This document shows positions 28,722 through 60,960 of a stretch of DNA of 64,000 nt, piece after piece. The notes beneath the pieces are model-generated. The model saw only the letters and a list, made by a program, of their open reading frames with translations. It searched no databases and had not been told where the DNA came from. Numbering within the stretch: the stretch's first letter is position 1; every line of letters starts with the position of its first letter. The DNA is from a virus. Its lineage: Duplodnaviria > Heunggongvirae > Uroviricota > Caudoviricetes. The DNA is taken from the IMG/VR virus record IMGVR_UViG_3300043172_000799, positions 92,944 through 156,943 of that record; one strand, given 5' to 3'. Position numbers and translations under genes: made by a program.

Positions 28722-29830
28722 ATAGCCTTTATCAACTTCTCTGAGGGGAAGTCCTCATAGTATTCCGCTACAGTCCCCACACTTCCATCTAGCCATTTAA
28801 AAGCAAGATCTTTATATGGTGTACCTACAACTAAGGTAGCAAATCTTTTTCTATTTGCTAATTCCTTATCAGAAAAGCTCTTAAGATATTTCAAGAATCC
28901 TTCTGCTTCTGCCATGTACAGATCATACTTATCCTTTACAGATGCCAAAACATTTTTGTATTCAGGAAAGTAAGTAAGCACCTCAGCCATCTCATTCTTT
29001 CTTATGATATCCAAAGCTCTCTTTTCTGTAAAGATCCCCTCTCCCCTCATATGGTGCAAATGAACGTATACTTCACCTTTAATCTTAATTCGATTGAAAT
29101 ATTTATCACAAACTACAATACCTTCTTTATCAGTCCCAAAATCTTGTACCAGATCTATACAATCCTCAAGATTGGCTAGATCATATTCTTGCAGACTACT
29201 CACTATAGCACTTATGGCAAGATGGTTCTTCTCTTCCCCTGTTTTATTGTCCTTGGAAGAAAGATAGAATATCTTTGGAGAATCATATCGTACCACCACT
29301 CTGTTAGAGGGAGTACACAATTCAAAGATATGCGTTTCATCTTCAAGATCATTAAGGAAGCTGAAATTCTGTACATTGTAATTAACCATTAAGGTATTGA
29401 TGAACAGTGCTCCAAAACTGTCAATAGGAATTCCTTCATCATTGAAAGTAAGTTCCTGAAGCCCTGCATTAAATCCATTTATTGTCCCATTGGTAGCAAT
29501 GAACCATCCACCATTTATACAGTATAGTTTTATGATGCTTCCATCTTCCTTAGAAGTAGCTCGTGCAGATTTCCAATCAATTTCTGGAACGTAACTCTCA
29601 CCATAATTTCCAAACTTATGAAAGGGATGACATACTATTTCCCAAGTACCTTCCCGAAGGATAATTCCTCTACATTCTCGCACTAATGGCTTGTGAAAAT
29701 CTGATTTAATTTGGTTATACTTAAATATGACTAATCCGTTATCTTTCTTAACCTTTATAGCATAATCTCTTTCTAAAAGCTCCTCATAGTTCTCTGGATG
29801 CTCTTTACAAAACTCTTGTATTTTTAACAT
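28718..29830 (-). CDS. rnlA: RNA ligase 1 (T4 RnlA-like)
   Basis: 'VRECRGIILRE' matches T4 Rnl1 'ALECRGIMFEM'. Motif I 'TSKEDGSIIKLY' matches 'TKEDGSLVS'. Confidence 0.8.
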   Translation of the reverse strand: MLKIQEFCKEHPENYEELLERDYAIKVKKDNGLVIFKYNQIKSDFHKPLVRECRGIILREGTWEIVCHPFHKFGNYGESYVPEIDWKSARATSKEDGSIIKLYCINGGWFIATNGTINGFNAGLQELTFNDEGIPIDSFGALFINTLMVNYNVQNFSFLNDLEDETHIFELCTPSNRVVVRYDSPKIFYLSSKDNKTGEEKNHLAISAIVSSLQEYDLANLEDCIDLVQDFGTDKEGIVVCDKYFNRIKIKGEVYVHLHHMRGEGIFTEKRALDIIRKNEMAEVLTYFPEYKNVLASVKDKYDLYMAEAEGFLKYLKSFSDKELANRKRFATLVVGTPYKDLAFKWLDGSVGTVAEYYEDFPSEKLIKAI

Positions 29831-30132: not shown

Positions 30133-31014
30133 TTAAAATTCAGTGTGGTAAATTCTATCATCAATATTAAATACGGTAAGTCCCATACTTTTCCATTCTC
30201 TGACCATAATCGGACGATCATCAAATACACCACACACAACAAAGCCCTTTCTGGCAACATGCTGGTCAAATAATTCCCGTTTAATAATAGCATCTTTCCT
30301 ACTGTCACCTTTGGCTCGCATGTATAATCCCTCGTATGGGATGATATAATCATCTAACCACTTTTCAGTAAGTTCTCGGCAAGAGCTATCTCTCCCAGAC
30401 ATAATGTAGATCGTATTTCCGGTTCTATGTAGTAGTCTCAAAATTAGAGCTACATCTACCCTTAACTTATCTTCTCCTACCCGATCCCACATAAAAGGTT
30501 TTCTACCATTCATTTGAGCAAGGGAGCCATCCAAATCAAAAATATAAAGTTGATTTAAATTTCCATCTCTGGGGTCTGCCTGATGCTTTTTGTTTTCCCT
30601 AACATCAAAATGTCTCATCCAAGTATTTTGAATGATACTAGCACCAAGACTATTCTCACGCTTAAGATCGTTCTCAATACATTTTTCCAAAGGCACATCT
30701 AGAAAACTTTTAATTTCAAATTCCACAGCCGGATAGTACCCTTTAATTACTGCCTTTCTCTCTTTGATTTTTTCCATACTTAAATTCATGGAATCAATAA
30801 TTGCATTCTTCCCACTATCCAAAATAGATAGAATCATTTCCTTCTCAACCTTGGAGATGAACTTCTCATTTTTGGCATTAAAATGAATATTATCAAACAT
30901 CAGCCGGAGATCGTCCCTGCATACTCGTTTCCAATTAGGGTCTTGAGCACGTTTCTTAGCATACGTACTCTTCCCTGATCCTTGAATACCACGCATAAAT
31001 AATACTTTACTCAC
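30133..31014 (-). CDS. pnk: polynucleotide 5'-kinase / 3'-phosphatase (T4 Pnk-like)
   Basis: N-terminal P-loop 'FMRGIQGSGKSTYAKK'. C-terminal HAD phosphatase 'LYIFDLDGSLAQMNGR...IMSGRDS...KGDSRKDAIIKRELF...VFDDRP' is collinear with T4 Pnk 'VIFDVDGTLAKMNGR...VVSGRES...QGDTRKDDVVKEEIF...AIDDRT'. Confidence 0.85.
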   Translation of the reverse strand: MSKVLFMRGIQGSGKSTYAKKRAQDPNWKRVCRDDLRLMFDNIHFNAKNEKFISKVEKEMILSILDSGKNAIIDSMNLSMEKIKERKAVIKGYYPAVEFEIKSFLDVPLEKCIENDLKRENSLGASIIQNTWMRHFDVRENKKHQADPRDGNLNQLYIFDLDGSLAQMNGRKPFMWDRVGEDKLRVDVALILRLLHRTGNTIYIMSGRDSSCRELTEKWLDDYIIPYEGLYMRAKGDSRKDAIIKRELFDQHVARKGFVVCGVFDDRPIMVREWKSMGLTVFNIDDRIYHTEF

Positions 31015-31360: not shown

Positions 31361-32635
31361 TTACTGGTTCTTAACTGTTTCAGAAATATTCATGAAAGAT
31401 TCAAGACCAATGGCATCAAAAGGATTCATGGGAGATCCTTCACCACCACCAAAGATCATCATATCAGGAAGATCTATATTTGACATATTCCTAGATACTA
31501 CATCAGCGATTTTGAAATTCCATTCTGCTTTCTGCTGTGGTGTAAGTCCTGCTCTTACTTTTAATGCATTGGCATCTGCTTCAGCTTTTTCTTTAACAAG
31601 TCGCTGTGTAGCTGACTCTCTGGCTTCAGCAGTTGCAAGTTTAGCAACATTAAGATCCCTTTGGGCATTCATCTCAGCAACTTCTTTTGCCTGTTCTGCT
31701 TTAAGTTTAGCAACTGCCTTCGCTTTCTCAGCCTGTGTTACGGCAGTGATCTTAGCAACTTCTTCAGTAGCTCTTGCTTTGGCAATATCGGCTTCACCCT
31801 GAGCTTCAGCAGTTAAAGCATCCTGTACGGCTTTTTCAGCATTTGTAATAGCAACAGCTTTTTCCTGTTCCGCTTTTTTCTTCTGGGAGATCAAGCTATC
31901 AATAGTTTCATCATAATCAATATCTTTTAAAGTATGGTTAACAAGCTCAAGACCATACTCTTTGAAGATACCTGGTTTGATAATAATAGGAAACCCATCA
32001 GCATCAGTTTTAATAACTACTCTTGTAGAAGATGCCATGATTACATTACCTTCTTCATCTTCTTCATTTGTTGGAGTTAGTACTTTTTCAATAATTGTTG
32101 CATACAACCCATTGGCAATCTGATCTGTTATCAGTTGTGAAAACTCTCCACGGCGTGTTGAATATGTTTCATCAGCTTTAAATGTGGAAGCAGTCTGTTT
32201 AGAAACTTCAATTATCCATTGCCGTACCTGTGCAGATAAAGAAGCAAATCCTCTATAGTTTCTATGTATCTTAATAATAGGGACATCTCCTAAAGGCATT
32301 CTCCACTGGGTGACAGAACCTATCTCTGCTGTACCACCATCACCAAACCGAACAGTGGTTGCATTAGTTTCTGCACCTTTACCACCATCAAGCGCATCAT
32401 TTGATAAGTACGTCTCTGATGTTCTGTAGTACTCTGTGATCTTACCAAACATCTGAAGGTAAAGCCCCTCTTCTGCTCTTGTGGTTAGCGTTCCAGTCAA
32501 GGTCGCCTGTTTTACATGGATCTCTCCACCATCTACTGTCTCAACAATTGACTGTGAGAAGAGTAACACTACAATAAGTGCAATAACTCCTCCCCCTATA
32601 ATTCCTATTCTATTTGGGTTCATTTTTATATTCAT
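31361..32635 (-). CDS. SPFH/band-7 (flotillin/HflK-like) membrane protein
   Basis: N-terminal TM 'IGIIGGGVIALIVVLLF'. Central beta-rich domain. Long Ala/Glu/Lys-rich heptad region 'AEAQGEADIAKARATEEVAKITAVTQAEKAKAVAKLKAEQAKEV' typical of HflK/flotillin. Confidence 0.55.
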   Translation of the reverse strand: MNIKMNPNRIGIIGGGVIALIVVLLFSQSIVETVDGGEIHVKQATLTGTLTTRAEEGLYLQMFGKITEYYRTSETYLSNDALDGGKGAETNATTVRFGDGGTAEIGSVTQWRMPLGDVPIIKIHRNYRGFASLSAQVRQWIIEVSKQTASTFKADETYSTRRGEFSQLITDQIANGLYATIIEKVLTPTNEEDEEGNVIMASSTRVVIKTDADGFPIIIKPGIFKEYGLELVNHTLKDIDYDETIDSLISQKKKAEQEKAVAITNAEKAVQDALTAEAQGEADIAKARATEEVAKITAVTQAEKAKAVAKLKAEQAKEVAEMNAQRDLNVAKLATAEARESATQRLVKEKAEADANALKVRAGLTPQQKAEWNFKIADVVSRNMSNIDLPDMMIFGGGEGSPMNPFDAIGLESFMNISETVKNQ

Positions 32636-33371: not shown

Positions 33372-33941
33372 TTATTTTCCATAAGCCAGCCTTGGATACA
33401 GCATTCCTATCTTTGACTGTAAACCGGCTATGGTTGAATCATTGTAAATAACACTGTCAGGAACGATACTGTCTATTTCCATTTCAGAGGAATGTGTATC
33501 GATAGAGATAAGTCCCTCTCGTTCCAGTTTAATAATATGTCCTCCCATAGATTTAATGGTGTTGGCTTCATTTAAGAATCTAACATCAGATATAACTACA
33601 TTTGGCTTCTCTGTAAAAGAATCATACCAGTACTGAAATCTTTTTACCCAGATATCGGACCCTATCAATTCCTTGAATAATGGTAATATCTCTTGTAGCC
33701 TTTGCCTGAATAATTCTGTGCCCATAGCTTGTTGTGCCTGTCTGGGAGAGATATTCCATCTAGGGTCAATTGTCTCTTTATATTTTCCATTAACCCATTC
33801 ATCATCCCAAAGGAAGATTTCTGCCACTGATGTTTTAATTGGATCTGCAAATTTGTATCTGGTAAATCCAAATTGATCTATCAAATAATCTGCTACCTCA
33901 TCTTTCCCTGATCTTTTTTTTCCTACTATTCCTAGTATCAT
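33372..33941 (-). CDS. deoxynucleoside monophosphate kinase (T4 gp1-like)
   Basis: 'MILGIVGKKRSGKDEVADYL...YKFADPIKTSVAEIF' matches T4 gp1 'LIFLSGVKRSGKDTTADFI...YQLAGPIKDALAYAW'. Confidence 0.75.
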   Translation of the reverse strand: MILGIVGKKRSGKDEVADYLIDQFGFTRYKFADPIKTSVAEIFLWDDEWVNGKYKETIDPRWNISPRQAQQAMGTELFRQRLQEILPLFKELIGSDIWVKRFQYWYDSFTEKPNVVISDVRFLNEANTIKSMGGHIIKLEREGLISIDTHSSEMEIDSIVPDSVIYNDSTIAGLQSKIGMLYPRLAYGK

Positions 33942-34933
33942 TCCATAACCACCTTATCCAAATAATTCATAAACCACATTCGTGCTTTCACACTCATGGC
34001 TTTCCCTACATCTTTAGGCTCCAAACCATTCTCATTTAATACATCCATTTCTTCCATAATAATATCTCTGTTAACCCACTTAAGGAAATCACTCATCATC
34101 TGGATTCTGGGTGTTTCAGATGCAGAAGTGAAAACCTGTTCAATAGCCTGATTCAATCTGTTCTCTGTGACTGCATATTCCACAAACTCATTGACTGAAT
34201 TCATCTTTTCAATGTCCACAGGAGCTACTGTCTTAACTTTAGATGCCGAGTGCTTCTCCCCCTTAGTTTTAAAAATATGATCTCTGTGTCCATTCTCATC
34301 ATAGTGTGACCACACAATCCCTTCCCCAATACCATGTGCATCAAAATGCTTTGAGAAAGGACATTCCTCCTCCACTTCATCCACTAACTTAATCATTTCT
34401 GCCTGTGCAATCTGTGAATAGTTAAAATCAATCTCCAGTTCATATGTGAGGAAATCAAAGATATTATACACATCAAGATCCTCATTCATAAAATCAGGCT
34501 GTGTGTAGAAATGATCTGCTTCATCTTCAATTCCTGTATATTTGATTGCAAAGACCACAAATCGTTTAGAGAGATGATTTAAAGCAACTCCTGTCTGGAT
34601 ATTTCCACCACACCATTCTCCGAAGATAGTGGTGATATATCCATCTTTATGTAGATAATCAAATATTTTATACCAAAAATCTTTTCTATTGCTGGCAAAG
34701 AAAGCAAATCCTGCATTATCTTTCTCTGGAGTAATTATATTCTTTCTACTCTGATACCAAATTCCATCTGCCGGTGTATGGCATATCCCTGCATTCGTTC
34801 CGTGGAGCTTAATTGCCCCTTCAAAAGTTAGCGTAGGGTGTGTAGCTCTAACCTCTCCTTCTGGCACATGGCATACATTTCTAATGATGTGCCGGTACTG
34901 TCCTATTTTTGTAAAACTAATAAATTTTTTCAT
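33938..34933 (-). CDS. RNA ligase 2 (T4 Rnl2-like)
   Basis: Motif I 'AIKLHGTNAGI' matches Rnl2 'EKIHGTNFSL'. 'IFGEWCGGNIQ' matches 'VFGEFAGPGIQ'. Motif V 'IFKTKGEKH'. 331 aa, similar in length to T4 Rnl2. Confidence 0.8.
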   Translation of the reverse strand: MKKFISFTKIGQYRHIIRNVCHVPEGEVRATHPTLTFEGAIKLHGTNAGICHTPADGIWYQSRKNIITPEKDNAGFAFFASNRKDFWYKIFDYLHKDGYITTIFGEWCGGNIQTGVALNHLSKRFVVFAIKYTGIEDEADHFYTQPDFMNEDLDVYNIFDFLTYELEIDFNYSQIAQAEMIKLVDEVEEECPFSKHFDAHGIGEGIVWSHYDENGHRDHIFKTKGEKHSASKVKTVAPVDIEKMNSVNEFVEYAVTENRLNQAIEQVFTSASETPRIQMMSDFLKWVNRDIIMEEMDVLNENGLEPKDVGKAMSVKARMWFMNYLDKVVME

Positions 34934-36448: not shown

Positions 36449-37174
36449 TTACTCCTCCATATCACAATTAACCAAATTATCTATAACATTTGGTTCTTTT
36501 GAAAATATAGGTGCTTCATTTAAAAACTCCCATCCATTCTCAGTCTTTACACAGAAATTTCCATTCTTCCATTTATCTTTGTAGTCTTCCCATGTAATTT
36601 GGTGCTCATCCCACAACATCTGTTTGATGTCATTAGTATTCTTTTTATGCATTTTACTATGAGAGAACACAGATTGTCCTGCAAGCTGAATGGAATTCCT
36701 TTTCCAATCCATACTTCTCCACACAAAATAATTATTCACTTCTTCACGGGGAATGTTGAATACTCTGCTATCGAAATAAGCAGTCTTTGAGGAATTATAT
36801 ATACTGCTGTAGTAATGATTAAACTCCGCAGTAGCAATAGAAGCAGAGACACTACACATCTTCTGTATACCATAATCAAACCATGCATCCGTTGTAAGTT
36901 TGTCATAATCTGTGATTAGAATGGAAATTTCATCTGATTGCATATATGCACATTTAGCTCCCTGAATTTCTTCACAAAGCTTGATGGTGGTTGCTCTCAT
37001 CATAGCATTTAAATTTTCATCGAACGGTCTATCCATACCTTTTGTAATAGAATGAAAGCACTTCCCATCTAAGCGACAGATAACTGGTGTTCTCCTAGTT
37101 AAATACGTTCTAGCTCTCTTTTCATAATTATCTTTCATTCTATCTGCAATTTGTGTTTTATCCATCGACCTCAA
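36449..37174 (-). CDS. Thg1-like protein (tRNA-His guanylyltransferase family, 3'-5' nucleotide addition)
   Basis: 'RTPVICRLDGKCFHSITKGMDRPFDENLNAMMRATTIKL...AYMQSDEISILI' is collinear with Thg1 'IVVRIDGKKFHEF...KPNDENALKLMNACA...AFGESDEYSFIL'. Confidence 0.75.
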   Translation of the reverse strand: MRSMDKTQIADRMKDNYEKRARTYLTRRTPVICRLDGKCFHSITKGMDRPFDENLNAMMRATTIKLCEEIQGAKCAYMQSDEISILITDYDKLTTDAWFDYGIQKMCSVSASIATAEFNHYYSSIYNSSKTAYFDSRVFNIPREEVNNYFVWRSMDWKRNSIQLAGQSVFSHSKMHKKNTNDIKQMLWDEHQITWEDYKDKWKNGNFCVKTENGWEFLNEAPIFSKEPNVIDNLVNCDMEE

Positions 37175-38557: not shown

Positions 38558-39103
38558 TTATTTATCCTCTAACATATTTCTGGCATTATTTAGTTCCTCA
38601 GCAGTATGAGGTGTACCTGTTCCGTTCAAACTTAAATAAAGCTCAATAGCTTCTTTCTCGGACTTAACTTTAAGCATATGTACTCTAAAATCTACACAAC
38701 CCCTAATCTCATACTCATCTGCAAATCTCCCAAAAACTTTTATTTCATGTTTGAGAAATCTACGTACAGCCGTTGTTCTCTGTAATCCATCAATTAAATA
38801 TAGTTTAACATGGAAGTCTTTATTACTACCAAACTCATTGAAATATTGCTCTGCTATAATAACTTCTGTAGCTGAACCACCCTGTAAGGGGGCTGTAAAG
38901 CAGTACTCAATGTAGGCAATTTGCTGTTCCTCTGTCCAAACGTGACCTCTTTGCCATTCTGGTACAATATATTCTACATAAGATTTGTCTTCTTTTTCAA
39001 AAGCAAAGCTAGTAGAATCATCTTCAAACTTCCATCTAAAGGAACACCCATTCCACGTCCAATTTAAGTTGGGTTGAAGATCTCTCACATTTATCTTACC
39101 CAT
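38558..39103 (-). CDS. DUF262 / ParB-like nuclease-domain protein (GmrSD N-terminal domain family)
   Basis: 'EWQRGHVWTEEQQIAYIEYCF' and 'LIDGLQRTTAV' match the two DUF262 signature blocks (QR..vW...q...LI.S and DGQQR). Confidence 0.55.
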   Translation of the reverse strand: MGKINVRDLQPNLNWTWNGCSFRWKFEDDSTSFAFEKEDKSYVEYIVPEWQRGHVWTEEQQIAYIEYCFTAPLQGGSATEVIIAEQYFNEFGSNKDFHVKLYLIDGLQRTTAVRRFLKHEIKVFGRFADEYEIRGCVDFRVHMLKVKSEKEAIELYLSLNGTGTPHTAEELNNARNMLEDK

Positions 39104-39370: not shown

Positions 39371-40231
39371 CTACATCTCTTCACTTATCAGCCTCTCCTT
39401 GCTGTACTTCCACAACACTTTAACTGGATACTCGCCCTGAAGAGTTCCAGGTAGTGGGATCATAGCATTCTTGTTTACAACTACCTCATAACTCTTTTCC
39501 TTAGTAATGACCTTCTCATCTGTTCTTTCTATTGGATACATATCTTTAGCTTTTGGGCTATTACACAAACATGTCCACAATATTCCCAGTCCCTCATTGC
39601 AAATTTTATACGGATCAAAATCCAAAGTATTTCTGTCCAGCAATAAATGAAATCCAGATTTTGTATCTATCCAGAAATATCTGAGTTTGGTTCTTTCTAA
39701 ATATTCCTCTAACAATTCTGGAGCATTAAAATCGTCTGGCACATCAAAATCAATATCAAGCCAATGCTTTGTACCTCTATTTCTTTGGTAACAATTCATT
39801 AGCTCCACATCTAGTTTATTGAACTTATCTTTGAAGCTGATTGCATTATTACTAGACAATTCGTATTGCCAATCATTCACCTTCCGATTAAACTCTTGTA
39901 AAGACTTCAATGAATTACTGGGATTAATATTAAAGTAAATCACCATACATTTAGCAGGAATAGGTAGCGCATTCTTTGATAAATACCCTCCTTCAGCTAC
40001 TTCATACTTTCTAATTGTTCTTAGAAATCTAGTCCATTCCCGTTTTCTCACAATAGCTCTACCAAACATCTCAGCTCTAGTGATGTGAAATTTCTCTCTT
40101 TCTTCTGCATTTAAGTATTTCTTCCTACAAGAAAGTGAGAGGAAGAACACTTCAAAATCTTTCAATTCAGGAACTATTTTAGTATAAAATTTAAACAGCT
40201 CCTCTTCATCGTAAATAAAACTATAGTTCAT
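39371..40231 (-). CDS. hypothetical protein; weak archaeo-eukaryotic primase (AEP)-like motifs
   Basis: 'HWLDIDFD' (hhhDhD) followed by 'TKSGFHLLL' (sGxxHhh) and 'LDFD', in AEP order. Fold not established. Confidence 0.3.
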   Translation of the reverse strand: MNYSFIYDEEELFKFYTKIVPELKDFEVFFLSLSCRKKYLNAEEREKFHITRAEMFGRAIVRKREWTRFLRTIRKYEVAEGGYLSKNALPIPAKCMVIYFNINPSNSLKSLQEFNRKVNDWQYELSSNNAISFKDKFNKLDVELMNCYQRNRGTKHWLDIDFDVPDDFNAPELLEEYLERTKLRYFWIDTKSGFHLLLDRNTLDFDPYKICNEGLGILWTCLCNSPKAKDMYPIERTDEKVITKEKSYEVVVNKNAMIPLPGTLQGEYPVKVLWKYSKERLISEEM

Positions 40232-40240
40232 TTTCTCCCC

Positions 40241-40717
40241 CTAATCAAACCATGTGCTTTTGATATTATTGTCAACAATGAACTTAGAGAATACCTCAAA
40301 ACCTTTCCATGTATCAATATGGTAGGTATCAATAAAGAAGTCTTCGGGATTAGTTTCTAATAATTTATTTTCCCGAATTTTGCAAATTTTATCTAAATCC
40401 TTTAAGGGAGTTCCTTGCTCAAGTAATTCATCCAAGTATTTCATTATAGCTTTATTAGAGCCTCTAGTCTCAGAAGGGGAAATGTTACAGCCATGTCCAT
40501 CAGCTCTTATTTCTAGTGCTTTTTCTACACTATTAAACAGCTTCAGAGCTTTAGTCACAGGCATCTGCCCGTAGATTACCATGTAATAGTTCTGGAAATG
40601 TGCTGTAAAACCGTTTAAGGCATATACATCAATAGATGAACCTATTGGCATATAGTAGTGTTTCTTCCAACCACTAGCTTTCATTAATGTTTTAAATGTA
40701 TATGTGTCTTTTCTCAT
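40241..40717 (-). CDS. hypothetical protein
   Basis: 158-aa ORF, ATGA-coupled to the HD hydrolase gene. Confidence 0.35.
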   Translation of the reverse strand: MRKDTYTFKTLMKASGWKKHYYMPIGSSIDVYALNGFTAHFQNYYMVIYGQMPVTKALKLFNSVEKALEIRADGHGCNISPSETRGSNKAIMKYLDELLEQGTPLKDLDKICKIRENKLLETNPEDFFIDTYHIDTWKGFEVFSKFIVDNNIKSTWFD

Positions 40718-41292
40718 TTTGTCATCCTTATATCCATGTAGTCTACGTCAATCCTGTATCTCTCAGCTAGCCAATTCACATGAGAAGCAATCCGATATGC
40801 AAACAGTTTATGAATGTGATCAGGATTATGCCCAATTCTATTCTGGTATACAGAAGAAATTAAAGCTTCTGTATCTATTACATACTTTGTGATAAACTTC
40901 AAAGGGATTCCATTCATTTCTAGAAACTGTACATTATGAAGTCTATCCACTAACTTAATTGTGAGAGCATCATCAGACATTCTCATCATTTTATCATATA
41001 AATATTCCAGTTTGGTTATTCCTTTGGGAATGATGGAAGTAAGTTCATCAACTAAGTTTCCCACTTTACTTCCAAATTCTTTATGGATCATTTCAGAAGT
41101 GATGTCAGTGTCTTCCACTACATCATGGAGCAATCCTGAAGCAACCAAGACGGGATCTTTCGTGAAATCTTCTAATATTCTAGCTACGAATTTAGGATGA
41201 ATAAAGTAAGGTAATTCCACCCATTTTCTTTCCTGTCCTTCGTGTGCTTCCTGAGCAAATGTGTATGCTCTATTTACCAAATTTTTTAACAT
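40714..41292 (-). CDS. HD-domain small alarmone ((p)ppGpp) hydrolase, RelA/SpoT-type
   Basis: 'FAQEAHEGQERKWVELPYFIHPKFVARIL...VASGLLHDVVEDTDITSEMIHKEFGSKVGNLVDELT' matches the SpoT/Mesh1 HD hydrolase consensus 'A..aH.GQ.Rk.G.PYi.Hpl.VA.iL......aALLHDvvEDT..t.eei...FG..Va.lV'. Confidence 0.75.
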   Translation of the reverse strand: MLKNLVNRAYTFAQEAHEGQERKWVELPYFIHPKFVARILEDFTKDPVLVASGLLHDVVEDTDITSEMIHKEFGSKVGNLVDELTSIIPKGITKLEYLYDKMMRMSDDALTIKLVDRLHNVQFLEMNGIPLKFITKYVIDTEALISSVYQNRIGHNPDHIHKLFAYRIASHVNWLAERYRIDVDYMDIRMTK

Positions 41293-41326
41293 TAAATACC
41301 TCCTAGATAATCTCTATTCTCTTGTT

Positions 41327-41911
41327 TCAAAATTCCCTCACTATAATCTCATATATTTCTTTCCAGTTATCTACTCTCTGCATACCATTAATTACCGCAG
41401 GATAATCCTTATTATGCCCCTGATTAAATAATATCCTTCTTCCATTAAACTCTTCCATATTTAATGGTCTATCGTCTACTATAAAATCCCCAGACACCAG
41501 ACTTTTATTAGTTCCAAAGAAGAAGTTCCTACTATCCAAGAATGGAAAATGACGTTCAAGCCACTTAACTTTATATGGTGCAATATCCCAGTTCCCTGAT
41601 ATAGAGGATACTACGAATATTTCCACCATCTTTTCCAAATACCCAACAATTTCTATAGCATCATCCATTGGCAACATATTATCCCACAGAGTTGTTACTA
41701 CTCCATATCTGTTTTCTTCTGGCTTCAAATAAGTGTAGATAGTATTCCCACATTTAGGTTTGGTGAACTTAGCTATATCCCAATCTGTGATTATCTTAGT
41801 ATCCAAGTTATCATCCCAGACATTGTTGTATACTGCTATCCATGGGGTAAGTAAATCTCCCAATGTATCATCGAGATCCAAGATCAATCTTTTTCTTTTC
41901 ATCCATCCCAC
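41327..41911 (-). CDS. HAD-family 5'(3')-deoxyribonucleotidase-like phosphatase
   Basis: Motif I 'LILDLDDTL'. Motif IV-like 'FIVDDRP'. Confidence 0.45.
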   Translation of the reverse strand: MGWMKRKRLILDLDDTLGDLLTPWIAVYNNVWDDNLDTKIITDWDIAKFTKPKCGNTIYTYLKPEENRYGVVTTLWDNMLPMDDAIEIVGYLEKMVEIFVVSSISGNWDIAPYKVKWLERHFPFLDSRNFFFGTNKSLVSGDFIVDDRPLNMEEFNGRRILFNQGHNKDYPAVINGMQRVDNWKEIYEIIVREF

Positions 41912-42363
41912 TCCACTAATGTAATTTCAATATCAGGTGTTACCTCATTGATTATCTCTTTGATTTTATTCCAATTCCCACCGGCTAATCCAGCACCTAT
42001 TTTAGGTATCCCAACTACGTCTCCTCTAAAGTCATAATTAATAGTGGTAAATACTTCTCGTATAGCCATATAGTCAACTGGCTTTTCACCTCTATAGTCA
42101 TATTGTGTATAGGCATTGATTACTAGAAGATTCCCAACTGTCCCTAAATAATTAGTAAAAGCACAAGTATACGTCCCAAGTTTGTCTTTATCTCCTTTTT
42201 TTGAGTCCTTATCAATCTGGTAAGCATCTGGAAAATTTCTCTTAATTCCAAAGGCAATTCCCTTGCCCATTGTGCAAAAGCAATTACTCCCATGTACAAT
42301 GATATCAAAATTTCCCTGTTTCGCCAATTTTATTAAATCACCCTTTATTACTTTAGTTATCAC
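41899..42363 (-). CDS. macro-domain protein (ADP-ribose binding/processing)
   Basis: 'FDIIVHGSNCFCTMGKGIAFGI' matches 'VNAAN..L..GgGVa.AI'. 'GIPKIGAGLAGGNW' matches the macro 'iafPaIsTGiyG.p' block. Confidence 0.65.
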   Translation of the reverse strand: MITKVIKGDLIKLAKQGNFDIIVHGSNCFCTMGKGIAFGIKRNFPDAYQIDKDSKKGDKDKLGTYTCAFTNYLGTVGNLLVINAYTQYDYRGEKPVDYMAIREVFTTINYDFRGDVVGIPKIGAGLAGGNWNKIKEIINEVTPDIEITLVEWDG

Positions 42364-42948
42364 TTAGTACTCCTTTCTTTTCCACTCTAGCATTACAGCA
42401 CTCACTACATGTCCTCTATGCCAATTTGTAACCCTTTCTCGATAATTGTTTCTATCTCTCGTAGATTCATTTCTGCCTTTCTGTTTAAAGTCGGCTACAA
42501 AGTAATCACCAACTTCCTGTGATTCAAATATATTTTTAGTTATATAAATGTACCTAGTTAGTATTTTATCTTTTATCTTTTGAGATGGGGATGTGATAAA
42601 TAAAATAAAATCCTCACCATCAAAATGCTTCACTACACAATATTCATAGTGATCAAAAACCTGTCTGCTACGTGTAACTATATTCCCATCGGAATCTGTA
42701 GTTACATAAAACTCAGTTCTGGTTACTGATTTTGAGTCTTCAATATAACCAACATGTTCTTCATCATATAATCGTTCTTTTATTGTCCCTTCTTTTATAG
42801 GAAGCTCAAAAAACCGAACAAACAGAAATGTTACCAAACTTATAACAGCTAATATACTGCATATAATGGCTATAGTTTTCCCATAGTTTCTAAAAAATCT
42901 TTTAATATCTTCTCCTGTAATTTCAATTTCAACTTCGTTTTTACTCAT
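42364..42948 (-). CDS. membrane-anchored hypothetical protein
   Basis: TM 'TIAIICSILAVISLVTFLFV' near the N-terminus. Confidence 0.35.
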   Translation of the reverse strand: MSKNEVEIEITGEDIKRFFRNYGKTIAIICSILAVISLVTFLFVRFFELPIKEGTIKERLYDEEHVGYIEDSKSVTRTEFYVTTDSDGNIVTRSRQVFDHYEYCVVKHFDGEDFILFITSPSQKIKDKILTRYIYITKNIFESQEVGDYFVADFKQKGRNESTRDRNNYRERVTNWHRGHVVSAVMLEWKRKEY

Positions 42949-42974: not shown

Positions 42975-43358
42975 CTACAGTAATTTATACTCACTAGTCA
43001 TATCCTTTACAAGAATACTTCTATAGGGACCAATGGCTATGCATGTCACAGTTGGTATTCCATGAAACTCTGTCTTGCCACAGTCAGTTATGATGGCATA
43101 TGGTATATCTAATCTCTTGGCTCTTTCTGCTAAAGAGTGGATATCAGACTCGGAATCACATCCCAATACTATTTTGGTAAAGATACCATTAATCCACTCC
43201 TTCTGCTCAGGAGTGACTGATATTATTAAGCAGTCATCTTCTAGCCAATTACCCTGATCTAAAATTACCTTCATGGAAGCATGTGCTACCTGAGATGCTA
43301 TTTTACCTTTTCTCATTTTAAGATCTTTTCTTACCACTATGGTCTGTTGTGTTAGCAT
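42975..43358 (-). CDS. peptidyl-tRNA hydrolase, PTH2 family
   Basis: 'QTIVVRKDLKMRKGKIASQVAHAS...GIFTKIVLGCDSESDIHSLAERAKRLDIPYAIITDCGKTEFHGIPTVTCIAIGP' is collinear with PTH2 '[25 protein letters not shown]...KVVLKV.dee.L..l...A...gLp..li.DAGrTqi..gs.TVLgiGP'. Confidence 0.85.
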   Translation of the reverse strand: MLTQQTIVVRKDLKMRKGKIASQVAHASMKVILDQGNWLEDDCLIISVTPEQKEWINGIFTKIVLGCDSESDIHSLAERAKRLDIPYAIITDCGKTEFHGIPTVTCIAIGPYRSILVKDMTSEYKLL

Positions 43359-43588
43359 TTATTCACTCCAATACTAAATATTTTCCCATCTTTTGGCAAG
43401 CCCAATTCCTCCCGTGAGTAACGTGTATTGAAATACGCTGTCACTTCACTAGGATTATCTGGATTACCATAAACAGGGTGATTGTATCTTGCCTCCGCAG
43501 GAAATCCTGCTTTACATAAGGAGCAGTCTATTTCTTCATTATTTATTTTTAGTTTTTTAATCCAAGGTATTTTATAATCATATTCCAT
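43352..43588 (-). CDS. hypothetical protein
   Basis: 78-aa ORF. Confidence 0.3.
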   Translation of the reverse strand: MEYDYKIPWIKKLKINNEEIDCSLCKAGFPAEARYNHPVYGNPDNPSEVTAYFNTRYSREELGLPKDGKIFSIGVNKC

Positions 43589-43596
43589 TTTGGCTC

Positions 43597-44031
43597 CTAA
43601 TCTAATATTCCATTTTTGATTTCTGTATACACTTCCAGATCGTTCTTTTTGGCTAGGCTTTCCATATATATTTTAGCCTTATCCTTATGCTCATATTGCC
43701 AGTATTTTTCAGTGGCTAGATCAAATACAGAACTTAGAAACTGTGGTCTAATTGTGATGCAAGTAAGTCTAAGTTGTCCTGCAAAATGCAGAATTACCCA
43801 ATTTCTTCTTGGCTTTAACTTGTCAATCCTATTGAAAATGTTAGAAAGTTGAGAAAAGATAAACTTGGTGAGACATTTCCCAACATCAGTATTTCCTTTC
43901 TTGATTTGGTCTTTTTTGTAAAATTCATATTGCTTCATCACTTTAGGCGTGCTCCATTCTGTTCCCATAAAAAACTCCTCATACCATACTTTATTAGAAG
44001 CATAGCACAAGGAGTATCTTTTGTCAAGCAC
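43597..44031 (-). CDS. hypothetical protein
   Basis: 144-aa ORF. Confidence 0.35.
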   Translation of the reverse strand: MLDKRYSLCYASNKVWYEEFFMGTEWSTPKVMKQYEFYKKDQIKKGNTDVGKCLTKFIFSQLSNIFNRIDKLKPRRNWVILHFAGQLRLTCITIRPQFLSSVFDLATEKYWQYEHKDKAKIYMESLAKKNDLEVYTEIKNGILD

Positions 44032-44164: not shown

Positions 44165-46960
44165 TTATGCACTTTCTTCATAGTCCCATTCATATCCGTA
44201 ACTCCTTATCAATTCTGCCTCTTTCTTTTCATCATCCCAATCTTTATCAGCATAAATATGATCATACCAATTCCCATTATCATAGTATTCTACATCCGCT
44301 TTCATGGTATGTATAACCCATCTGTGTTTCTTCATTAGATATGTAGTCATATAATAAACAACTTTCTCACGCAAACCCTTCCCTATCCATTCAGATAGAT
44401 CTTCTGGTGTATCAAAGTATATAGCATCATGAATCTGGGCTACTATTTTTGTCTTTAACTTGTTTTTATCTATATATTCTTGTATTTTAGTTTGTGCCTG
44501 AAGAATAAGATGAAAAGCAGGTCCTTGTATCACGTAATTGTTACACTGATTTCTATTCATAACTGTAGTTGAATAGAAGCCTGTTGCTAATTTTGTTCTC
44601 ATATTTTTTACATAATTTTTCCAGTTATCTTTTCTCCATTGTCCAAACTCTCCATAATTATCCTCCCAGTACCAATCACACACAGTTTTTATATGCTCTG
44701 TAAATTTCTTTTCTGTATCTATTTTAGACTCTTTGAAATATTGTTTGTGGTATTCCTGTAGATGTTTATTGTACACTGTTGGACCTATACTGAGATATAT
44801 ATCTCCAAATTGTAATGAAAAGGACATACCATTTTTACCTATATACCTAAGATCTTTCCACATATGAGCTTCCGTGTCATTTTTAGCATCATAATTTCCC
44901 ATTTCTTTTTTAATCTCTATCATGTCTTTAGATACTTGAGACAATTCCCCCATAAACAATTTTTCAGCTAAGCCAAGATGCATATCTAATCCTTCCTCTA
45001 ATTGTTTGAGCATGGTTTTATCATGATGTACAGAACACCCTACACCCACTTCTAAACTACTTGCATCTGCTCCTATGATTCTGTTTCCTTCTGAAGACAT
45101 TAAGAAAGACTTTGACATCTCTGCTGCAAATGGATCATGTTGACTTTGATTCTGCCAGTTTGGATTTTGAGAAGATCCTCTATAACTTTTTGGTATATTC
45201 AAAGAGAACATAGGGTATATGTGCCCTTCTACCATTTCTCTTCTAACACCTTTCAAATCTTGTGTTAATTTTATCAATTTAGCAAGCTCCAAGTACATTT
45301 TCAAAAACTCAGATAACGGAGCTATGTCTTTTAGCTCTTTAGCTTCTGTTGAATATTGATCCCCTCCTGTTTTTTTTGTTTTAGGTAATCTCAAAATATT
45401 AAAAAGAAAATCCGACAATTGTTTGCCAGAACTATAGTTGAACTCTGTATCTCTATTCTCATACCACTTATCAATTTCTGGACAATTTTTAATATTGTAT
45501 TGCAATTTGACTATTTTCTTTTCTAATATCATTTCATTTTTTATCAATCTTTCTTCATCTATTCTAAACCCATTCTCCATCATTCTACAAAAAGATAACA
45601 TACCATCATGAAATAAGTGAAAACCCTTCATCAAATGTGGATCACCTTCTATTTGTGGCCTCTGCCATTCATAAAGATGATATGTAAAATGGCTATCTTT
45701 TGCACAATATAAACACATATCCTTTAAATCCATAAGATGCATTGTATTGAAGCCATTTGCACCATATAATGCTTTCTCTTCTTTTGTAGATTTAATATAA
45801 CTATCTGCCATACTATCATATCCTAGAATTCCAAATCTCATATATGTCTGTACTTTTAAACCTGTGATATTAGATCTATTATCCAAAATGTGAGAAACTA
45901 GCATTGTGTCCCATACAAAGTTTTCAGATCTGTATCCAAATATGGAAATACTAGCTTGATACTCATATGCCATATTGTGTGATATTTTTCCAACCCTATT
46001 AGATTGAAGCAATCTCTTTAGATTATCCATAAATGGTTTGTTGTCATAGAATATAGGAAAACCATAAGATACAATACCATTACTAAAGGACACACAATAT
46101 ATTTTATGTCCTTTTTTTTGTAATTTTATACCACTTGCCTCATAGTCAAAAGATACTAAACTTTCCTTTTGCATACATTTCAGAACATGAGTAGCATCCT
46201 CCTCATGCATTACGGTACAACACTCTGACTCATATGTATCTTTTCTAAATTCTTTTTTTGATAATATATTTTTTAAATATTTTATAAAGAATTTTTCCTT
46301 TAATATAAAATCATCATACTCACATAATTTTTCATTCTTCCATAAAACAATTTTATCATCAGAACTTTTCCATTTCCCCCATTTTTTCAAGGAGTCTCTT
46401 CTTTTTTTAAGAGGCTGGAGTACAAAATTAATGTCATAATTTGGCATAACTAGCTTATGCAATTCTTGATCTGGTATTATAGTTCCATAGAACTTTTCTG
46501 TAGGTTTAAGGCTCATCCTTCCATTACATCTATCCCCTAAAAGAATCTCTAAAGGAAGTTCTCCTAGTGTTATTATTTTTTTAGGATTTAATTGCTTGAT
46601 TGTTTTATGCAATTTGTATTTGCAACTATTTATAATCTGAGTACTAGGTCCTCCCCAGTCCTCAGAAAAACATCTCACAGAAGGCACATACCAGCAATCT
46701 CTTTCTAAGTCAATATTAATTTTCTGTAAAGCATGTTTTAAATATTTCCCTTGTATATTACTTAAAAGTTTTCCAGATTGGTCTTCCCTTTCACTTGGAG
46801 GTGCTCCCACAATTAAGATGGATTTATCTCCGTTACCTACCACTCCTAGTTTTGGATTTTGGCAGTCCATATAAGCTTTACAACTTTCACAGCCTCCAAT
46901 TTTCTTTTTATTAACTTTCTTTCTAACTATTTCTTTTTCTATTTCAAAGAATCCTCGCAT
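44165..46960 (-). CDS. family A DNA polymerase with N-terminal family-4 UDG-like domain
   Basis: N-terminus 'GCESCKAYMDC...ILIVGAPPSEREDQSGKLL...SVRCF...IITLGELPLEIL' fits the UDG family 4 layout (GCxxC...GEAPGxxED..G.pF...N.vkCrPP). Motif A-like 'GADASSLEVGVGCSVHHD'. Motif B-like 'RYIGKNGMSFSLQFG'. Motif C 'VAQIHDAIYFD'. Confidence 0.8.
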   Translation of the reverse strand: MRGFFEIEKEIVRKKVNKKKIGGCESCKAYMDCQNPKLGVVGNGDKSILIVGAPPSEREDQSGKLLSNIQGKYLKHALQKINIDLERDCWYVPSVRCFSEDWGGPSTQIINSCKYKLHKTIKQLNPKKIITLGELPLEILLGDRCNGRMSLKPTEKFYGTIIPDQELHKLVMPNYDINFVLQPLKKRRDSLKKWGKWKSSDDKIVLWKNEKLCEYDDFILKEKFFIKYLKNILSKKEFRKDTYESECCTVMHEEDATHVLKCMQKESLVSFDYEASGIKLQKKGHKIYCVSFSNGIVSYGFPIFYDNKPFMDNLKRLLQSNRVGKISHNMAYEYQASISIFGYRSENFVWDTMLVSHILDNRSNITGLKVQTYMRFGILGYDSMADSYIKSTKEEKALYGANGFNTMHLMDLKDMCLYCAKDSHFTYHLYEWQRPQIEGDPHLMKGFHLFHDGMLSFCRMMENGFRIDEERLIKNEMILEKKIVKLQYNIKNCPEIDKWYENRDTEFNYSSGKQLSDFLFNILRLPKTKKTGGDQYSTEAKELKDIAPLSEFLKMYLELAKLIKLTQDLKGVRREMVEGHIYPMFSLNIPKSYRGSSQNPNWQNQSQHDPFAAEMSKSFLMSSEGNRIIGADASSLEVGVGCSVHHDKTMLKQLEEGLDMHLGLAEKLFMGELSQVSKDMIEIKKEMGNYDAKNDTEAHMWKDLRYIGKNGMSFSLQFGDIYLSIGPTVYNKHLQEYHKQYFKESKIDTEKKFTEHIKTVCDWYWEDNYGEFGQWRKDNWKNYVKNMRTKLATGFYSTTVMNRNQCNNYVIQGPAFHLILQAQTKIQEYIDKNKLKTKIVAQIHDAIYFDTPEDLSEWIGKGLREKVVYYMTTYLMKKHRWVIHTMKADVEYYDNGNWYDHIYADKDWDDEKKEAELIRSYGYEWDYEESA

Positions 46961-54135: not shown

Positions 54136-56178
54136 TTAAAAATTAATTTTAATTACTCTTGAAAAATTTCCTTCAATCTTAGTGGTTATACTATTGCGCT
54201 GTGTTGAAGAAAATCCCAAACCTGATAATTGTCTATCTGAAGATGCAACTCGCATTTTTGACCCCATAGCTTCGAAGACTCTTTTGTGCTCCATAAGCTT
54301 AGTATTTAAATGCTCATTGTAGAATCCTCTTGGGGCATTCTCATTTTTGCATTCATCCATGAAGAAGAAATAATGTTTATTCATAATCTCTTCCTGACCA
54401 TCCCAATAATTTGGTGACAGCATTGCTACAGATACTTTTGTGAACTTATTAGTATTTACTCCCCAGATCTCTTTAGAGGAAGTTGTAGAATCTAGAGATT
54501 TAATAAACTTAATGCCATTCTCTCTACTAAACTCAAGGGTAGCTACAGGAACATTCTCTTGGCTTCTAAGCTCTTTTGGGTATTCATAGGAATAAATCTC
54601 TCCCTCATATTCAATCTCGGCAGTAAATCCACTTCTGCCTCCATTATGGGAATAGTTGTGTACGAAGAATTCATATCTTCCCTCTAGCATCTTATGCTTG
54701 TCAGTCCACGTAATATTCTCTACTGCCGGACCATTTGGGCGTTCTCTCATAGGGCGCTGGATATCTACATCAAGTTTCCCACTAGTTCTGCTGGTACGAT
54801 TACCATAATAAAGATGCTCTCCACCTCTAGGTTCCCGTACATGTGCATCAAAGTCATTATCATTGTCCCGATCATCATTCCATTGTATTGAAAATCTGAG
54901 AACACCATCTACATCTCCACCGGCACTCTTAACATTCTGTTTCATACTATCTGCAACATCACCATTATATGCCCACGAAAAATTATTATTCCACTGTAAA
55001 ATACTCTTGGCATCTTTGTCAGTTGGAGCTACTAAACTCATGAAATTCCCTTTGTGTCTATTTTCCATCATAACCTCTACATTGGTAGCTGTAGGAAGAA
55101 TATTCTCTACAAAATCCTCAATAGATACTTCCTCTACCTTATTGAACTTTTTAGGATTCTCAGCCACTTCATCCTTAAGTTCATCAAAGATAGATCCACC
55201 CATTTTATTCTGGGCATCTCTATTTGTCCACAATACATTATTGATAGTGATGTCTTCAAGTACTGCGTGTTTTCTTCCAAGAGATTTCTCCAGCCCCAAT
55301 TCTATCATAGTCTTCTCTGCCTGTTCAACCATCTTCTTGGTGAAAATAGCTTTGGGTCTTTTGTAATTGGAAGGAGCCATTACTCTTTCAAACTTTTTTA
55401 CAGCCTCATCCAGATCCATCTCTTTAGATAAATCAATTAAAAGTGTCCCAACAGCCGTGTTTCGAATTTTAGCTATAGAACTTGCTCCTGAAGTTACCCA
55501 ACACCAGTTGTCCTTTTCTGAGTCGGGAACATCCATAAAAAGTGTTTTGTACTTGATGAACTCAGAAATAGCCTTTCTGTGCTCTTTTCCCCGATAAATA
55601 GATTTCTGATCAATTAGATCTAGAAAGGTATTTCCGGCTTCTAAGGTAAGCTCTACCATAGATCTCTGGAATACCTGTTTAAAGGAGAGAGCAGTTCCCT
55701 GTAAATCTCCTGCCGATTTGCTTGTAGTATTTACAAATTTAGCAGGAAGTTTGTAGTGAAAATGTTCCCATGTAAGAATGCTTTTGTCTTCCAACTGTTC
55801 CCGATTATAATCTGTACCCATGTTTGCTTCTTTAGTTACAAAGATATTTCGTATCGGAGCAGACTTTACCAACGCAGACATCTTCTCTGTTACGACAGCA
55901 AATGTAGGATCAGACACTTCCATATCCCAAATTGAAATCAGGGAGTTGTTCTTGACCACAACCATATTTCCGAAAGGTCTAATAAACTGTCTACAACAAT
56001 TACAGTCAAATTCTCTGCGTTCCCTATGGATCTCGTTTGTACCCTCTGGAAAACTATCCAGATAGGTGTGCCATAAATCATCTTTAGAAACATCTGTCAC
56101 AAAAAGCCTGTCCTGTCCAACCAACATCATGGCAATGTGCTTTTGCATCTCTTTCTTAAATACCTTAAAGTTACTCAT
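54136..56178 (-). CDS. large hypothetical protein (680 aa)
   Basis: Long uninterrupted ORF. 'DCNCCRQF' Cys cluster. No family recognised. Confidence 0.5.
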   Translation of the reverse strand: MSNFKVFKKEMQKHIAMMLVGQDRLFVTDVSKDDLWHTYLDSFPEGTNEIHRERREFDCNCCRQFIRPFGNMVVVKNNSLISIWDMEVSDPTFAVVTEKMSALVKSAPIRNIFVTKEANMGTDYNREQLEDKSILTWEHFHYKLPAKFVNTTSKSAGDLQGTALSFKQVFQRSMVELTLEAGNTFLDLIDQKSIYRGKEHRKAISEFIKYKTLFMDVPDSEKDNWCWVTSGASSIAKIRNTAVGTLLIDLSKEMDLDEAVKKFERVMAPSNYKRPKAIFTKKMVEQAEKTMIELGLEKSLGRKHAVLEDITINNVLWTNRDAQNKMGGSIFDELKDEVAENPKKFNKVEEVSIEDFVENILPTATNVEVMMENRHKGNFMSLVAPTDKDAKSILQWNNNFSWAYNGDVADSMKQNVKSAGGDVDGVLRFSIQWNDDRDNDNDFDAHVREPRGGEHLYYGNRTSRTSGKLDVDIQRPMRERPNGPAVENITWTDKHKMLEGRYEFFVHNYSHNGGRSGFTAEIEYEGEIYSYEYPKELRSQENVPVATLEFSRENGIKFIKSLDSTTSSKEIWGVNTNKFTKVSVAMLSPNYWDGQEEIMNKHYFFFMDECKNENAPRGFYNEHLNTKLMEHKRVFEAMGSKMRVASSDRQLSGLGFSSTQRNSITTKIEGNFSRVIKINF

Positions 56179-59418: not shown

Positions 59419-60960
59419 CTATTTCATTTCAATTTGATATATTTTATTCTTATATTCTAACAATACTTTCTCGCCATAGGCATCAGTGCATAGAATCCCA
59501 TCGAGTGGTATTTTTACATCTCTTAATATTTTATACTGATCCTTTTTAACATGTGTAATAATAAGATCCTCATCAGGGTTTAATAAGATAATCATTCCAT
59601 TTTTCAGAACAGTATAATTACATTCCGCAGGGGCATCTACTTCTACAATATATGATTCATTAAAATCTCTGGAGAATCCATTGGTATTCTGTTTAAAGAT
59701 TCCCACAAAATATTTCTTATCTTTTTCCATAGAGACTACTAAAACATTATTTCTGTATGAACAGTCAGTTATTTTGTACCCATCCAATTTCCCATCTAAA
59801 TTTGTATGAACTAGTGATGTATCATTGGCGACAATAAAATGATTTTTTTTAAAAATTGGATAATAAGCTGCACCATCATACAGTTTTGTATTTAGTGGGA
59901 CATTCATATTAAACGTGGCAGCCATCACATTATATGAAAAGGTGTTTAGCTTCAACATTCCTGATGAAAGCTCCACAAAGGAATCCTCAGAGAGTATAGA
60001 TAGGTTTTTGTGCCCTATAATATCTGCCAACTCGGTGTACCCAACCTTATCTTCTTTCATCTTAAAGAACTTCTTCATTCTGATATCTTTTACTTCGGTT
60101 ATCTTGAGTTTATCAGAGCCTTTCATTGAGATCTCCTTAACTTTTGGAGGCACATTCTGAAACATATTCATAGGAGGAAGAGATCTATTTCCCTTTACAA
60201 ATGTATCCTCATACCAAGTGAGTAACCCTTTTGGGATTATACTAAAATCCTCTACCGAAGCAGGAAGGTTTGTTTTTGAATCAAATACCGAAACATTATT
60301 TTTCATTCTAAGAAGAACATCTTTCTTTGTGTAGTCAGGATGCTTACCTTTAAATGGGTGTATGTTAGTCAGTAGCTGAAAAGTAATAATAGCATAAGAA
60401 TACCAATCAGTTATTTCATTGAATATCTTTTTATCAATTGCCTTTGGATCTGTAATCATGGGGGAAAAAGCTGTAGCTTTATGTCCCTTAGTTTGGTATG
60501 AGTCAATATCAATAAAGTATGGCATATCCAACTTAGCTTTTTCAAATAAGAAATTATTTTCATTTCCATCTACAATAACACAATTGTTCTTATGAATATA
60601 CTCCGTAGTTGTGCGAAGAGTTTCAATCAATTTCAGAATTGAATCTGTTGTAATGTTATTTCTAGTTTTATAACTTTTGGTGAAAAGCTTTGTTAGACTT
60701 TCAGTATTGTGTAGATACTTCATGGAATACCCTACAAAAGTATTATTCTGATCATACAGCACATCTTTAGGACTGACTATATTTGGCTTATCTAAAGTCT
60801 GGAGAATATTTAATTTGCTAATGAAATTATGTGATCTTTCTTTCTGAAATATCTTGTATATGATTCCATCTTTTAGATATATGTCTGCTTCTCCACCGGA
60901 AGTAAGAAAATGAGAATCTGCAATTTTAACCTTATGTCCATTTCTACTAGATATTGTCAT
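59419..60960 (-). CDS. Hanks-type (eukaryotic-like) Ser/Thr protein kinase with about 260-aa C-terminal extension
   Basis: Gly loop 'TSGGEADIYL'. Beta3 Lys 'IYKIFQK'. Catalytic loop 'VIVDGNENNFLF' (D...N). 'FIDIDSY' (DFG-like). 'DWYSYAIITFQLLTNIHPF' matches subdomain IX 'DvWSlGvilyeLltG.pPF'. Confidence 0.6.
   Translation of the reverse strand: MTISSRNGHKVKIADSHFLTSGGEADIYLKDGIIYKIFQKERSHNFISKLNILQTLDKPNIVSPKDVLYDQNNTFVGYSMKYLHNTESLTKLFTKSYKTRNNITTDSILKLIETLRTTTEYIHKNNCVIVDGNENNFLFEKAKLDMPYFIDIDSYQTKGHKATAFSPMITDPKAIDKKIFNEITDWYSYAIITFQLLTNIHPFKGKHPDYTKKDVLLRMKNNVSVFDSKTNLPASVEDFSIIPKGLLTWYEDTFVKGNRSLPPMNMFQNVPPKVKEISMKGSDKLKITEVKDIRMKKFFKMKEDKVGYTELADIIGHKNLSILSEDSFVELSSGMLKLNTFSYNVMAATFNMNVPLNTKLYDGAAYYPIFKKNHFIVANDTSLVHTNLDGKLDGYKITDCSYRNNVLVVSMEKDKKYFVGIFKQNTNGFSRDFNESYIVEVDAPAECNYTVLKNGMIILLNPDEDLIITHVKKDQYKILRDVKIPLDGILCTDAYGEKVLLEYKNKIYQIEMK

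Follow-up and report, generated by a model that had tools for sequence, protein, structure and literature searches.

What does a stand-alone hydrolase of the RelA/SpoT type do in a phage, and does its gene still specify a complete enzyme? These questions are raised by a gene for a small alarmone hydrolase (SAH) in a stretch of 64,000 nucleotides, referred to here as the window (positions 92,944 to 156,943 of the IMG/VR virus record IMGVR_UViG_3300043172_000799, Caudoviricetes). The original prediction, which gave no strand, had placed a 192-aa open reading frame (ORF) at 40714-41292, and it is found exactly there, on the minus strand, behind a strong AGGAGG ribosome-binding site. Its product is likely a stand-alone hydrolase of the RelA/SpoT homologue (RSH) superfamily, which would remove the 3'-pyrophosphate from stress nucleotides and so blunt the shutdown of the host. 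As far as sequence and model tell, its HD domain is complete, hydrolase-only and apparently active.

The assignment to this superfamily is carried by several profiles. The search with Pfam HD_4 (PF13328), proposed with the original prediction as a way of checking it, gives 54.2 bits against a cut-off of 27.2 (E 1.7e-14), while Pfam HD (PF01966) gives 26.9 bits against 22 and phrog_990, annotated as 'metal-dependent phosphohydrolase', is matched with E 1e-29. The first 123 positions of TIGR00691 (spoT_relA) are matched with E 7e-28, which stays under the full-length cut-off of that model because the protein has one domain only, as expected. These sequence matches are far beyond chance. Over the 192 aa only the HD_4 and HD matches are found, with no synthetase, TGS or ACT domain, and a search of the six-frame translated window with nine HD-plus-synthetase queries, which found no synthetase domain, matched the SAH ORF alone, through its HD part. 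The protein differs in this from the long Rel enzymes, and neither ribosomes nor an intramolecular switch would therefore regulate it.

Hydrolase domains of the long Firmicute Rel enzymes, RelSeq of Streptococcus (1vj7/24io) and Bacillus subtilis Rel (6yxa/8acu), are the closest solved relatives by sequence. They come first in the sequence search of the Protein Data Bank (PDB), where 8acu/6yxa and 1vj7 are matched with E 1e-18 to 1e-19, and are followed at lower ranks by Mesh1, several bacterial SAHs and the (p)ppApp hydrolase Aph1. Over 119 residues, identity amounts to 47% with the RelSeq hydrolase domain and 45% with B. subtilis Rel. When these 119 aligned residues are mapped onto RelSeq from the printed alignment, R22, K23, Y29, H32, H56, D57, E60, D61, D116 and N120 of the phage protein correspond to R44, K45, Y50, H53, H77, D78, E81, D82, D144 and N148, respectively. 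The HD...ED(T) consensus on which the original prediction had relied is present as H56-D57...E60-D61-T62, within LLHDVVEDT, and no residue of the HD motif is missing. Conservation among 48 relatives is nearly complete at the equivalents of all Mn2+ ligands (H32, H56 and D57 in 48/48, D116 in 47/48), and R22 and N120, the equivalents of substrate-contacting residues, are kept in 48/48 each, with Y29 likewise invariant. The Glu-Asp dyad is also retained (E60 in 47/48, D61 in 46/48); the RelSeq structure paper of Hogg et al. 2004 is said to have ascribed a catalytic role to this dyad, E81-D82 in RelSeq. The RelSeq–pppGpp structure of 2026 has revealed that Mn2+ is held by His53, His77 and Asp144, that Asp78 moves toward the metal upon substrate binding, and that guanine is contacted by Arg44 and Asn148 via their side chains, together with main-chain atoms from residues 45, 46 and 151; the substitutions R44Q and D78A abolish hydrolysis (PMC13299517). 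RelSeq, B. subtilis Rel and the phage protein do not differ in the Mn2+ site, in the ED dyad or at R44 and N148.

The predicted structure is in agreement with this assignment. The AlphaFold (AF2) model has a predicted local distance difference test (pLDDT) score of 95.4 and a predicted template modelling (pTM) score of 0.91, and the best 50 PDB matches listed by Foldseek are without exception SAHs or hydrolase domains of Rel, SpoT or RelA, in alignments that span the entire length, among them Mesh1 (5vxa), Pseudomonas aeruginosa SAH (6yvc), Corynebacterium glutamicum RelH (7qod) and a Leptospira SAH (7qoe), with TMq 0.70-0.77 and probability 1.00. Cellular SAHs (Mesh1 5vxa, 3nr1 and 3nqw; 6yvc; 7qod; 7qoe) have the same all-helical fold and a similar size of about 180-190 aa; they differ in being only 23-28% identical, in being chromosomal, and in having housekeeping, self-resistance or NADPH-phosphatase roles. 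In every feature checked, that is, profile, residues, architecture and modelled fold, the protein fits the hydrolase-only class of the RSH superfamily. The original description as a stand-alone, single-domain HD hydrolase is thus supported by profiles, catalytic-site match, conservation, model fold and phage origin alike.

By analogy with homologous enzymes, the SAH would catalyse the Mn2+-dependent hydrolysis of the pyrophosphate on the ribose 3'-OH, converting (p)ppGpp to GDP/GTP and (p)ppApp to ADP/ATP. As with MESH1, ATfaRel and the SSU5 enzyme PaSpo, it may also restore a free 3'-OH on tRNA CCA ends that have been pyrophosphorylated by toxic small alarmone synthetases (toxSASs). The genomic context suggests that it is expressed as part of a long run of genes in one orientation, for replication, nucleotide metabolism and RNA repair, and that by its action translation, GTP synthesis and replication in the infected low-GC host would be spared a shutdown. 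Such a shutdown could be due to the stringent response or to abortive infection of the toxSAS type; damping the former and defeating the latter rely on the same chemistry.

Phage enzymes of this kind have precedents. The stand-alone SAHs of the Salmonella phages PVP-SE1 (PbcSpo) and SSU5 (PaSpo) neutralise 5/5 tested toxSASs in co-expression, and the proposal has been made that SAHs help a phage entering the cell to get past alarmone-based defence (Jimmy et al. 2020, PMC7229694). MESH1 and ATfaRel restore the aminoacylation of FaRel2-pyrophosphorylated tRNA (Kurata et al., bioRxiv 10.1101/2021.04.30.441581), and a later preprint describes removal of the tRNA modification by SSU5 PaSpo (10.1101/2024.07.05.602228). 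SAH genes are now annotated routinely in phage genome papers, as in that of Pseudomonas phage Adele (PMC12846349). The SAHs of SSU5 and PVP-SE1 are likewise single-domain RSH hydrolases of virulent or large phages without an adjacent synthetase, and they conserve the same catalytic residues: a five-sequence alignment leaves H17, Q20, K23, Y29, H32, H56, D57, E60, D61, K113, D116 and N120 invariant. Since the role has already been shown for these two enzymes (PMC7229694), alarmone degradation or toxSAS reversal by the protein of the window is plausible, as homology predicts, and not new. The functional idea is already published and experimentally supported for homologues, and no new question is opened, because both the concept and the assays exist. 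Phage SAHs are the simplest known viral means to cancel alarmone growth arrest and toxSAS abortive infection, and they also serve as laboratory tools for toxSAS expression. What is added here is a divergent lineage of them, from an uncultured large low-GC phage, at most 51% identical to any database protein and 31-34% to the validated phage enzymes.

This divergence is one of several points that weigh against carrying the known role over to the phage protein. Its nearest relative is 51% identical, and a database of 5.8 billion protein sequences contains, apart from the protein itself, nothing beyond about 50-51% identity. Identity falls to 31% over 160 aa with SSU5 PaSpo (SSU5_099) and to 34% over 122 aa with PVP-SE1 gp220 (PbcSpo subfamily). 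These two come from enterobacterial phages, whereas the protein of the window comes from a low-GC genome resembling those of Bacillus and Clostridioides phages. Among deposited phage genomes, 443 records have a detectable homologue, all below 60% identity, and the best matches are in uncultured 'huge' phages of 480-640 kb and in Vibrio and Burkholderia jumbo phages. An enzyme of the same fold, MESH1, can take NADPH as its substrate in place of an alarmone. Substrate preference is not readable from the sequence. The alpha2/alpha3 loop, which contacts the base, is one residue longer than in long RSHs: between R22 and Y29 it has 8 residues in 44/48 relatives, as opposed to 7, and the residue after R-K, Ser46 in RelSeq, is aromatic (F, Y or W) in this family. 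SSU5 PaSpo has the same 8-residue R-K-aromatic...Y loop (RKYTGEDY) and long RSHs do not; in loop length and aromatic residue the protein resembles PaSpo, and its comparison with PbcSpo and PaSpo is otherwise one of pairwise identity. RelSeq is reported to be guanosine-specific, a property not transferable by assumption; deducing base specificity from the sequence was rejected, as recognition of the base depends mostly on main-chain atoms (PMC13299517). In that sense, the authors of the Adele genome judged predictions of SAH-type substrate preference unreliable (PMC12846349). The host is itself a presumed one, and so are toxSAS systems in it. The original prediction had also set the gene inside a counter-defence island: its neighbours are indeed accessory genes that vary between related phages, but none of them is shown to be a counter-defence gene, and the block is more aptly called a plastic segment of accessory genes within a region of replication, nucleotide metabolism and RNA repair.

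The accessory character of the gene becomes apparent when the window is compared with three related contigs, namely L009 (from IMG/VR), L002 (18.9 kb of it) and L007 (16.9 kb of it). In L009 the PolA protein is 75% identical and the SAH, directly after PolA, 51% identical; in L002 PolA is only 32% identical and the SAH 48%, within the order u286-SAH-u123...Thg1-Rnl2-PNKP-Rnl1. The PolA of L007 is also 32% identical, and this contig has Thg1, u286, an RNA ligase, NT5C, PNKP, Rnl1 and PTH2, with no SAH in the 16.9 kb compared. The gene is thus present in 3/4 related contigs, with different neighbours each time. The divergence of SAH is uncoupled from that of PolA, which suggests either allele exchange or fast evolution of an accessory gene. 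Retention in three of four relatives, a changing set of neighbours and a divergence independent of PolA's mark the gene as accessory. More distant family members, with 40-48% identity, are found on other large phage-like contigs rich in small genes, where genes of known anti-defence families lie nearby in two cases, an Apyc1 anti-Pycsar gene in L004 and a Tad2-like gene in L005.

In the window, the SAH gene is surrounded by tightly packed co-directional genes, between replication genes and a set of genes for tRNA and RNA repair (Table 1). Its stop codon and the start codon of the following gene, u158, overlap as ATGA, which suggests translational coupling. Between 37.0 and 47.5 kb, promoter-like sites are fewer than in shuffled sequences and terminator-like sites are at chance level. 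The repair set (PTH2, Thg1-like, PF09414 ligase, PNKP and Rnl1) is unusually complete for one phage and is largely conserved in L002 and L007. PolA carries an N-terminal domain of the uracil-DNA-glycosylase superfamily and a 3'-5' exonuclease domain, the same fusion as in L002 and L007. The macro-domain protein, which lies between the 194-aa protein and NT5C, has a strong match (188 bits) to phrog_335, annotated as 'phosphatase'. The GmrSD_N/DUF262 protein consists of that domain only, without the C-terminal nuclease half of GmrSD. Neither of these two proteins has a match in L002, L007 or L009, and in the 18.9 kb of L002 PTH2, NT5C and u158 are unmatched as well. The gene u286 adjoins the SAH region both in the window and in L002; with its AEP primase-polymerase fold it is most simply a replication gene, and this fold, together with its absence from the SAH-carrying stretch of L009, led to its rejection as a functional partner.

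Table 1. Positions of the SAH gene, its signals, the other genes discussed and the SAH genes of two related contigs (window coordinates unless a contig is named).
Feature	Coordinates	Strand	Details
SAH gene	40714..41292	minus	192 aa, ATG start; single RelA/SpoT-type HD domain
Shine-Dalgarno AGGAGG	41299..41304	minus	6 nt 5' of the SAH ATG; plus strand reads cctcct
ATGA overlap	40714..40717	minus	SAH TGA stop shared with the ATG of u158
PolA	44165-46960	minus	931 aa, family A
Small ORF	43597-44031		
Small ORF	43352-43588		
PTH2 peptidyl-tRNA hydrolase	42975-43358	minus	
194-aa protein, function unknown	42364-42948		
Macro-domain protein	41899-42363	minus	154 aa; Pfam Macro 20.7 bits, just under the cut-off of 22
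NT5C-type 5'(3')-deoxyribonucleotidase	41327-41911	minus	PF06941, 125 bits; directly upstream of SAH
u158, function unknown	40241-40717	minus	158 aa; directly downstream of SAH
u286	39371-40231		AEP primase-polymerase fold
GmrSD_N/DUF262 protein	38558-39103	minus	181 aa; 47 bits
Thg1-like 3'-5' nucleotidyltransferase	36449-37174	minus	
RNA ligase, Rnl2-type	33938-34933	minus	PF09414
dNMP kinase	33372-33941		
Band_7	31361-32635		
PNKP kinase-phosphatase	30133-31014	minus	
Rnl1-type ligase	28718-29830	minus	
680-aa protein, function unknown	54136..56178	minus	phrog_1735 end to end, 865 bits
513-aa protein	59419..60960	minus	eukaryotic-type Ser/Thr kinase domain (Pkinase, 46 bits)
SAH gene of contig L009	12790..13350		51% identical; directly after PolA
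SAH gene of contig L002	8294..8872		48% identical

Other explanations have to be weighed against this background. That the HD domain is catalytically dead, as in Escherichia coli RelA, and kept for a binding or regulatory role is very improbable: inactive HD domains do occur in the superfamily, and nothing specific to this protein points to one, all metal ligands and catalytic residues being present and invariant or nearly so across the family. The overlap with u158 could be taken as the sign of a type IV antitoxin that shields the phage or lysogen from a toxic synthetase of its own, a phage-borne toxSAS serving superinfection exclusion, with u158 as the toxin, since toxSAS and SAH genes do form overlapping operons, some of them phage-borne (PMC7229694). 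ATfaRel, the type IV antitoxin of the FaRel operon of Cellulomonas marina, is likewise a hydrolase-only RSH that destroys the product of the toxin and also acts on pyrophosphorylated tRNA; it adjoins its toxSAS, whereas the SAH of the window has no detectable synthetase adjacent to it or elsewhere in the window. Only u158 itself is found by a word-indexed search, and an exhaustive HMMER search finds 50 remote relatives of about 150-170 aa in which G50, P53, A57, Y132 and D135 are invariant. Neither alone nor as the profile of a 32-member family does u158 match a RelA_SpoT synthetase or anything else in Pfam or the PDB, and it is not beside the SAH in L002 and has no match in L009. It was therefore rejected as a toxSAS or any other partner of the SAH, and with neighbours on both sides free of synthetase matches a module of the FaRel/ATfaRel type was rejected too; the antitoxin explanation is largely refuted and has only a slight chance of being correct. 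A metabolic phosphatase acting on another 3'- or 2'-phosphorylated nucleotide, such as NADPH, pGpp, pAp or 3'-phosphoadenosine-5'-phosphosulfate (PAPS), and tuning nucleotide or cofactor pools for ribonucleotide reductase (RNR), thymidylate synthase and the nucleotidase in place of alarmone signalling, is improbable. In its favour, the top structural match is the complex of human MESH1 with NADPH (5vxa), the complex with PAPS (9chy) is matched as well, NT5C flanks the gene, which lies among genes of nucleotide metabolism that include dNMP kinase, ThyA and RNR, and an orphan bacterial SAH has been described as metabolically promiscuous (PMC9765508). In sequence, however, the protein is closest to long RSH domains that hydrolyse (p)ppGpp (72 bits, as opposed to 55 bits for MESH1), the substrate-contacting R44 and N148 of RelSeq are both retained, and MESH1 itself hydrolyses (p)ppGpp and neutralises toxSASs.

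It could also be argued that the enzyme is dedicated to the repair of tRNA 3' ends, its substrate being the CCA end pyrophosphorylated by host CapRel, PhRel2 or FaRel2 and not the free alarmone, a tentative possibility that is rather unlikely on present grounds. PTH2 is 1.7 kb away from the gene, the Thg1-like gene 3.5 kb, and the Rnl2-type ligase, PNKP and the Rnl1-type ligase less than 12 kb, and the order PolA...SAH...Thg1-Rnl2-PNKP-Rnl1 is retained in L002. The ability of MESH1 and ATfaRel to restore the aminoacylation of FaRel2-modified tRNA, the reported removal of the modification by SSU5 PaSpo, and the 8-residue loop that the family has in common with this last enzyme and not with long RSHs all speak in the same direction. 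Given the unusually complete repair set that adjoins it, the protein is a reasonable candidate for such a specialisation among phage SAHs. The association with RNA-repair genes is nevertheless limited to close relatives and may therefore be synteny by descent; family members in L003, L004 and L005 have no RNA-repair genes within 8 kb, L007 carries the repair set but no SAH, the same region also has genes of replication and dNTP metabolism, and the known tRNA-acting SAHs degrade free alarmones too. A wider version, in which the SAH belongs to a phage toolkit for the reversal of tRNA damage together with PTH2, the Thg1-like protein, PNKP, Rnl1 and Rnl2, its substrate being toxSAS-modified tRNA, is doubtful. 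In such a toolkit PTH2 would free peptidyl-tRNA, the SAH would strip the 3'-pyrophosphate from CCA ends, the Thg1-like protein would rebuild 5' ends, and anticodon-loop cuts would be healed and sealed by PNKP together with Rnl1 and Rnl2. If true, this phage lineage would offer a naturally occurring case of counter-defence by several routes against immunity that targets tRNA.

The phage that encodes this likely hydrolase of stress nucleotides is an uncultured large phage, probably of a low-GC Gram-positive host. The window has about 34% GC throughout, its GC skew is strongly negative, and nearly every ORF of at least 150 aa is encoded by the minus strand. Metagenomic contigs as long as 168 kb have a record of the identical SAH protein, so that the genome measures at least 168 kb. 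A megablast search with the region from 38 to 44 kb gave no DNA-level match to any deposited phage, and the phage is known only from metagenomes. Its replication and nucleotide module comprises PolA, the RNR large subunit, a Dda/PIF1 helicase, an ATP-dependent DNA ligase, a UvsX/RecA-like recombinase, thymidylate synthase and dNMP kinase, and the 64-kb window has no tRNA genes. The 513-aa protein with the kinase domain has no PHROG match. The conserved 680-aa protein shares about 50% identity with proteins from Bacillus phages of the BCP78/Tsarbomba group and from Clostridioides phage pCD1602_4, and its homologues occur in 550 phage records, those of Salmonella and Klebsiella phages included.

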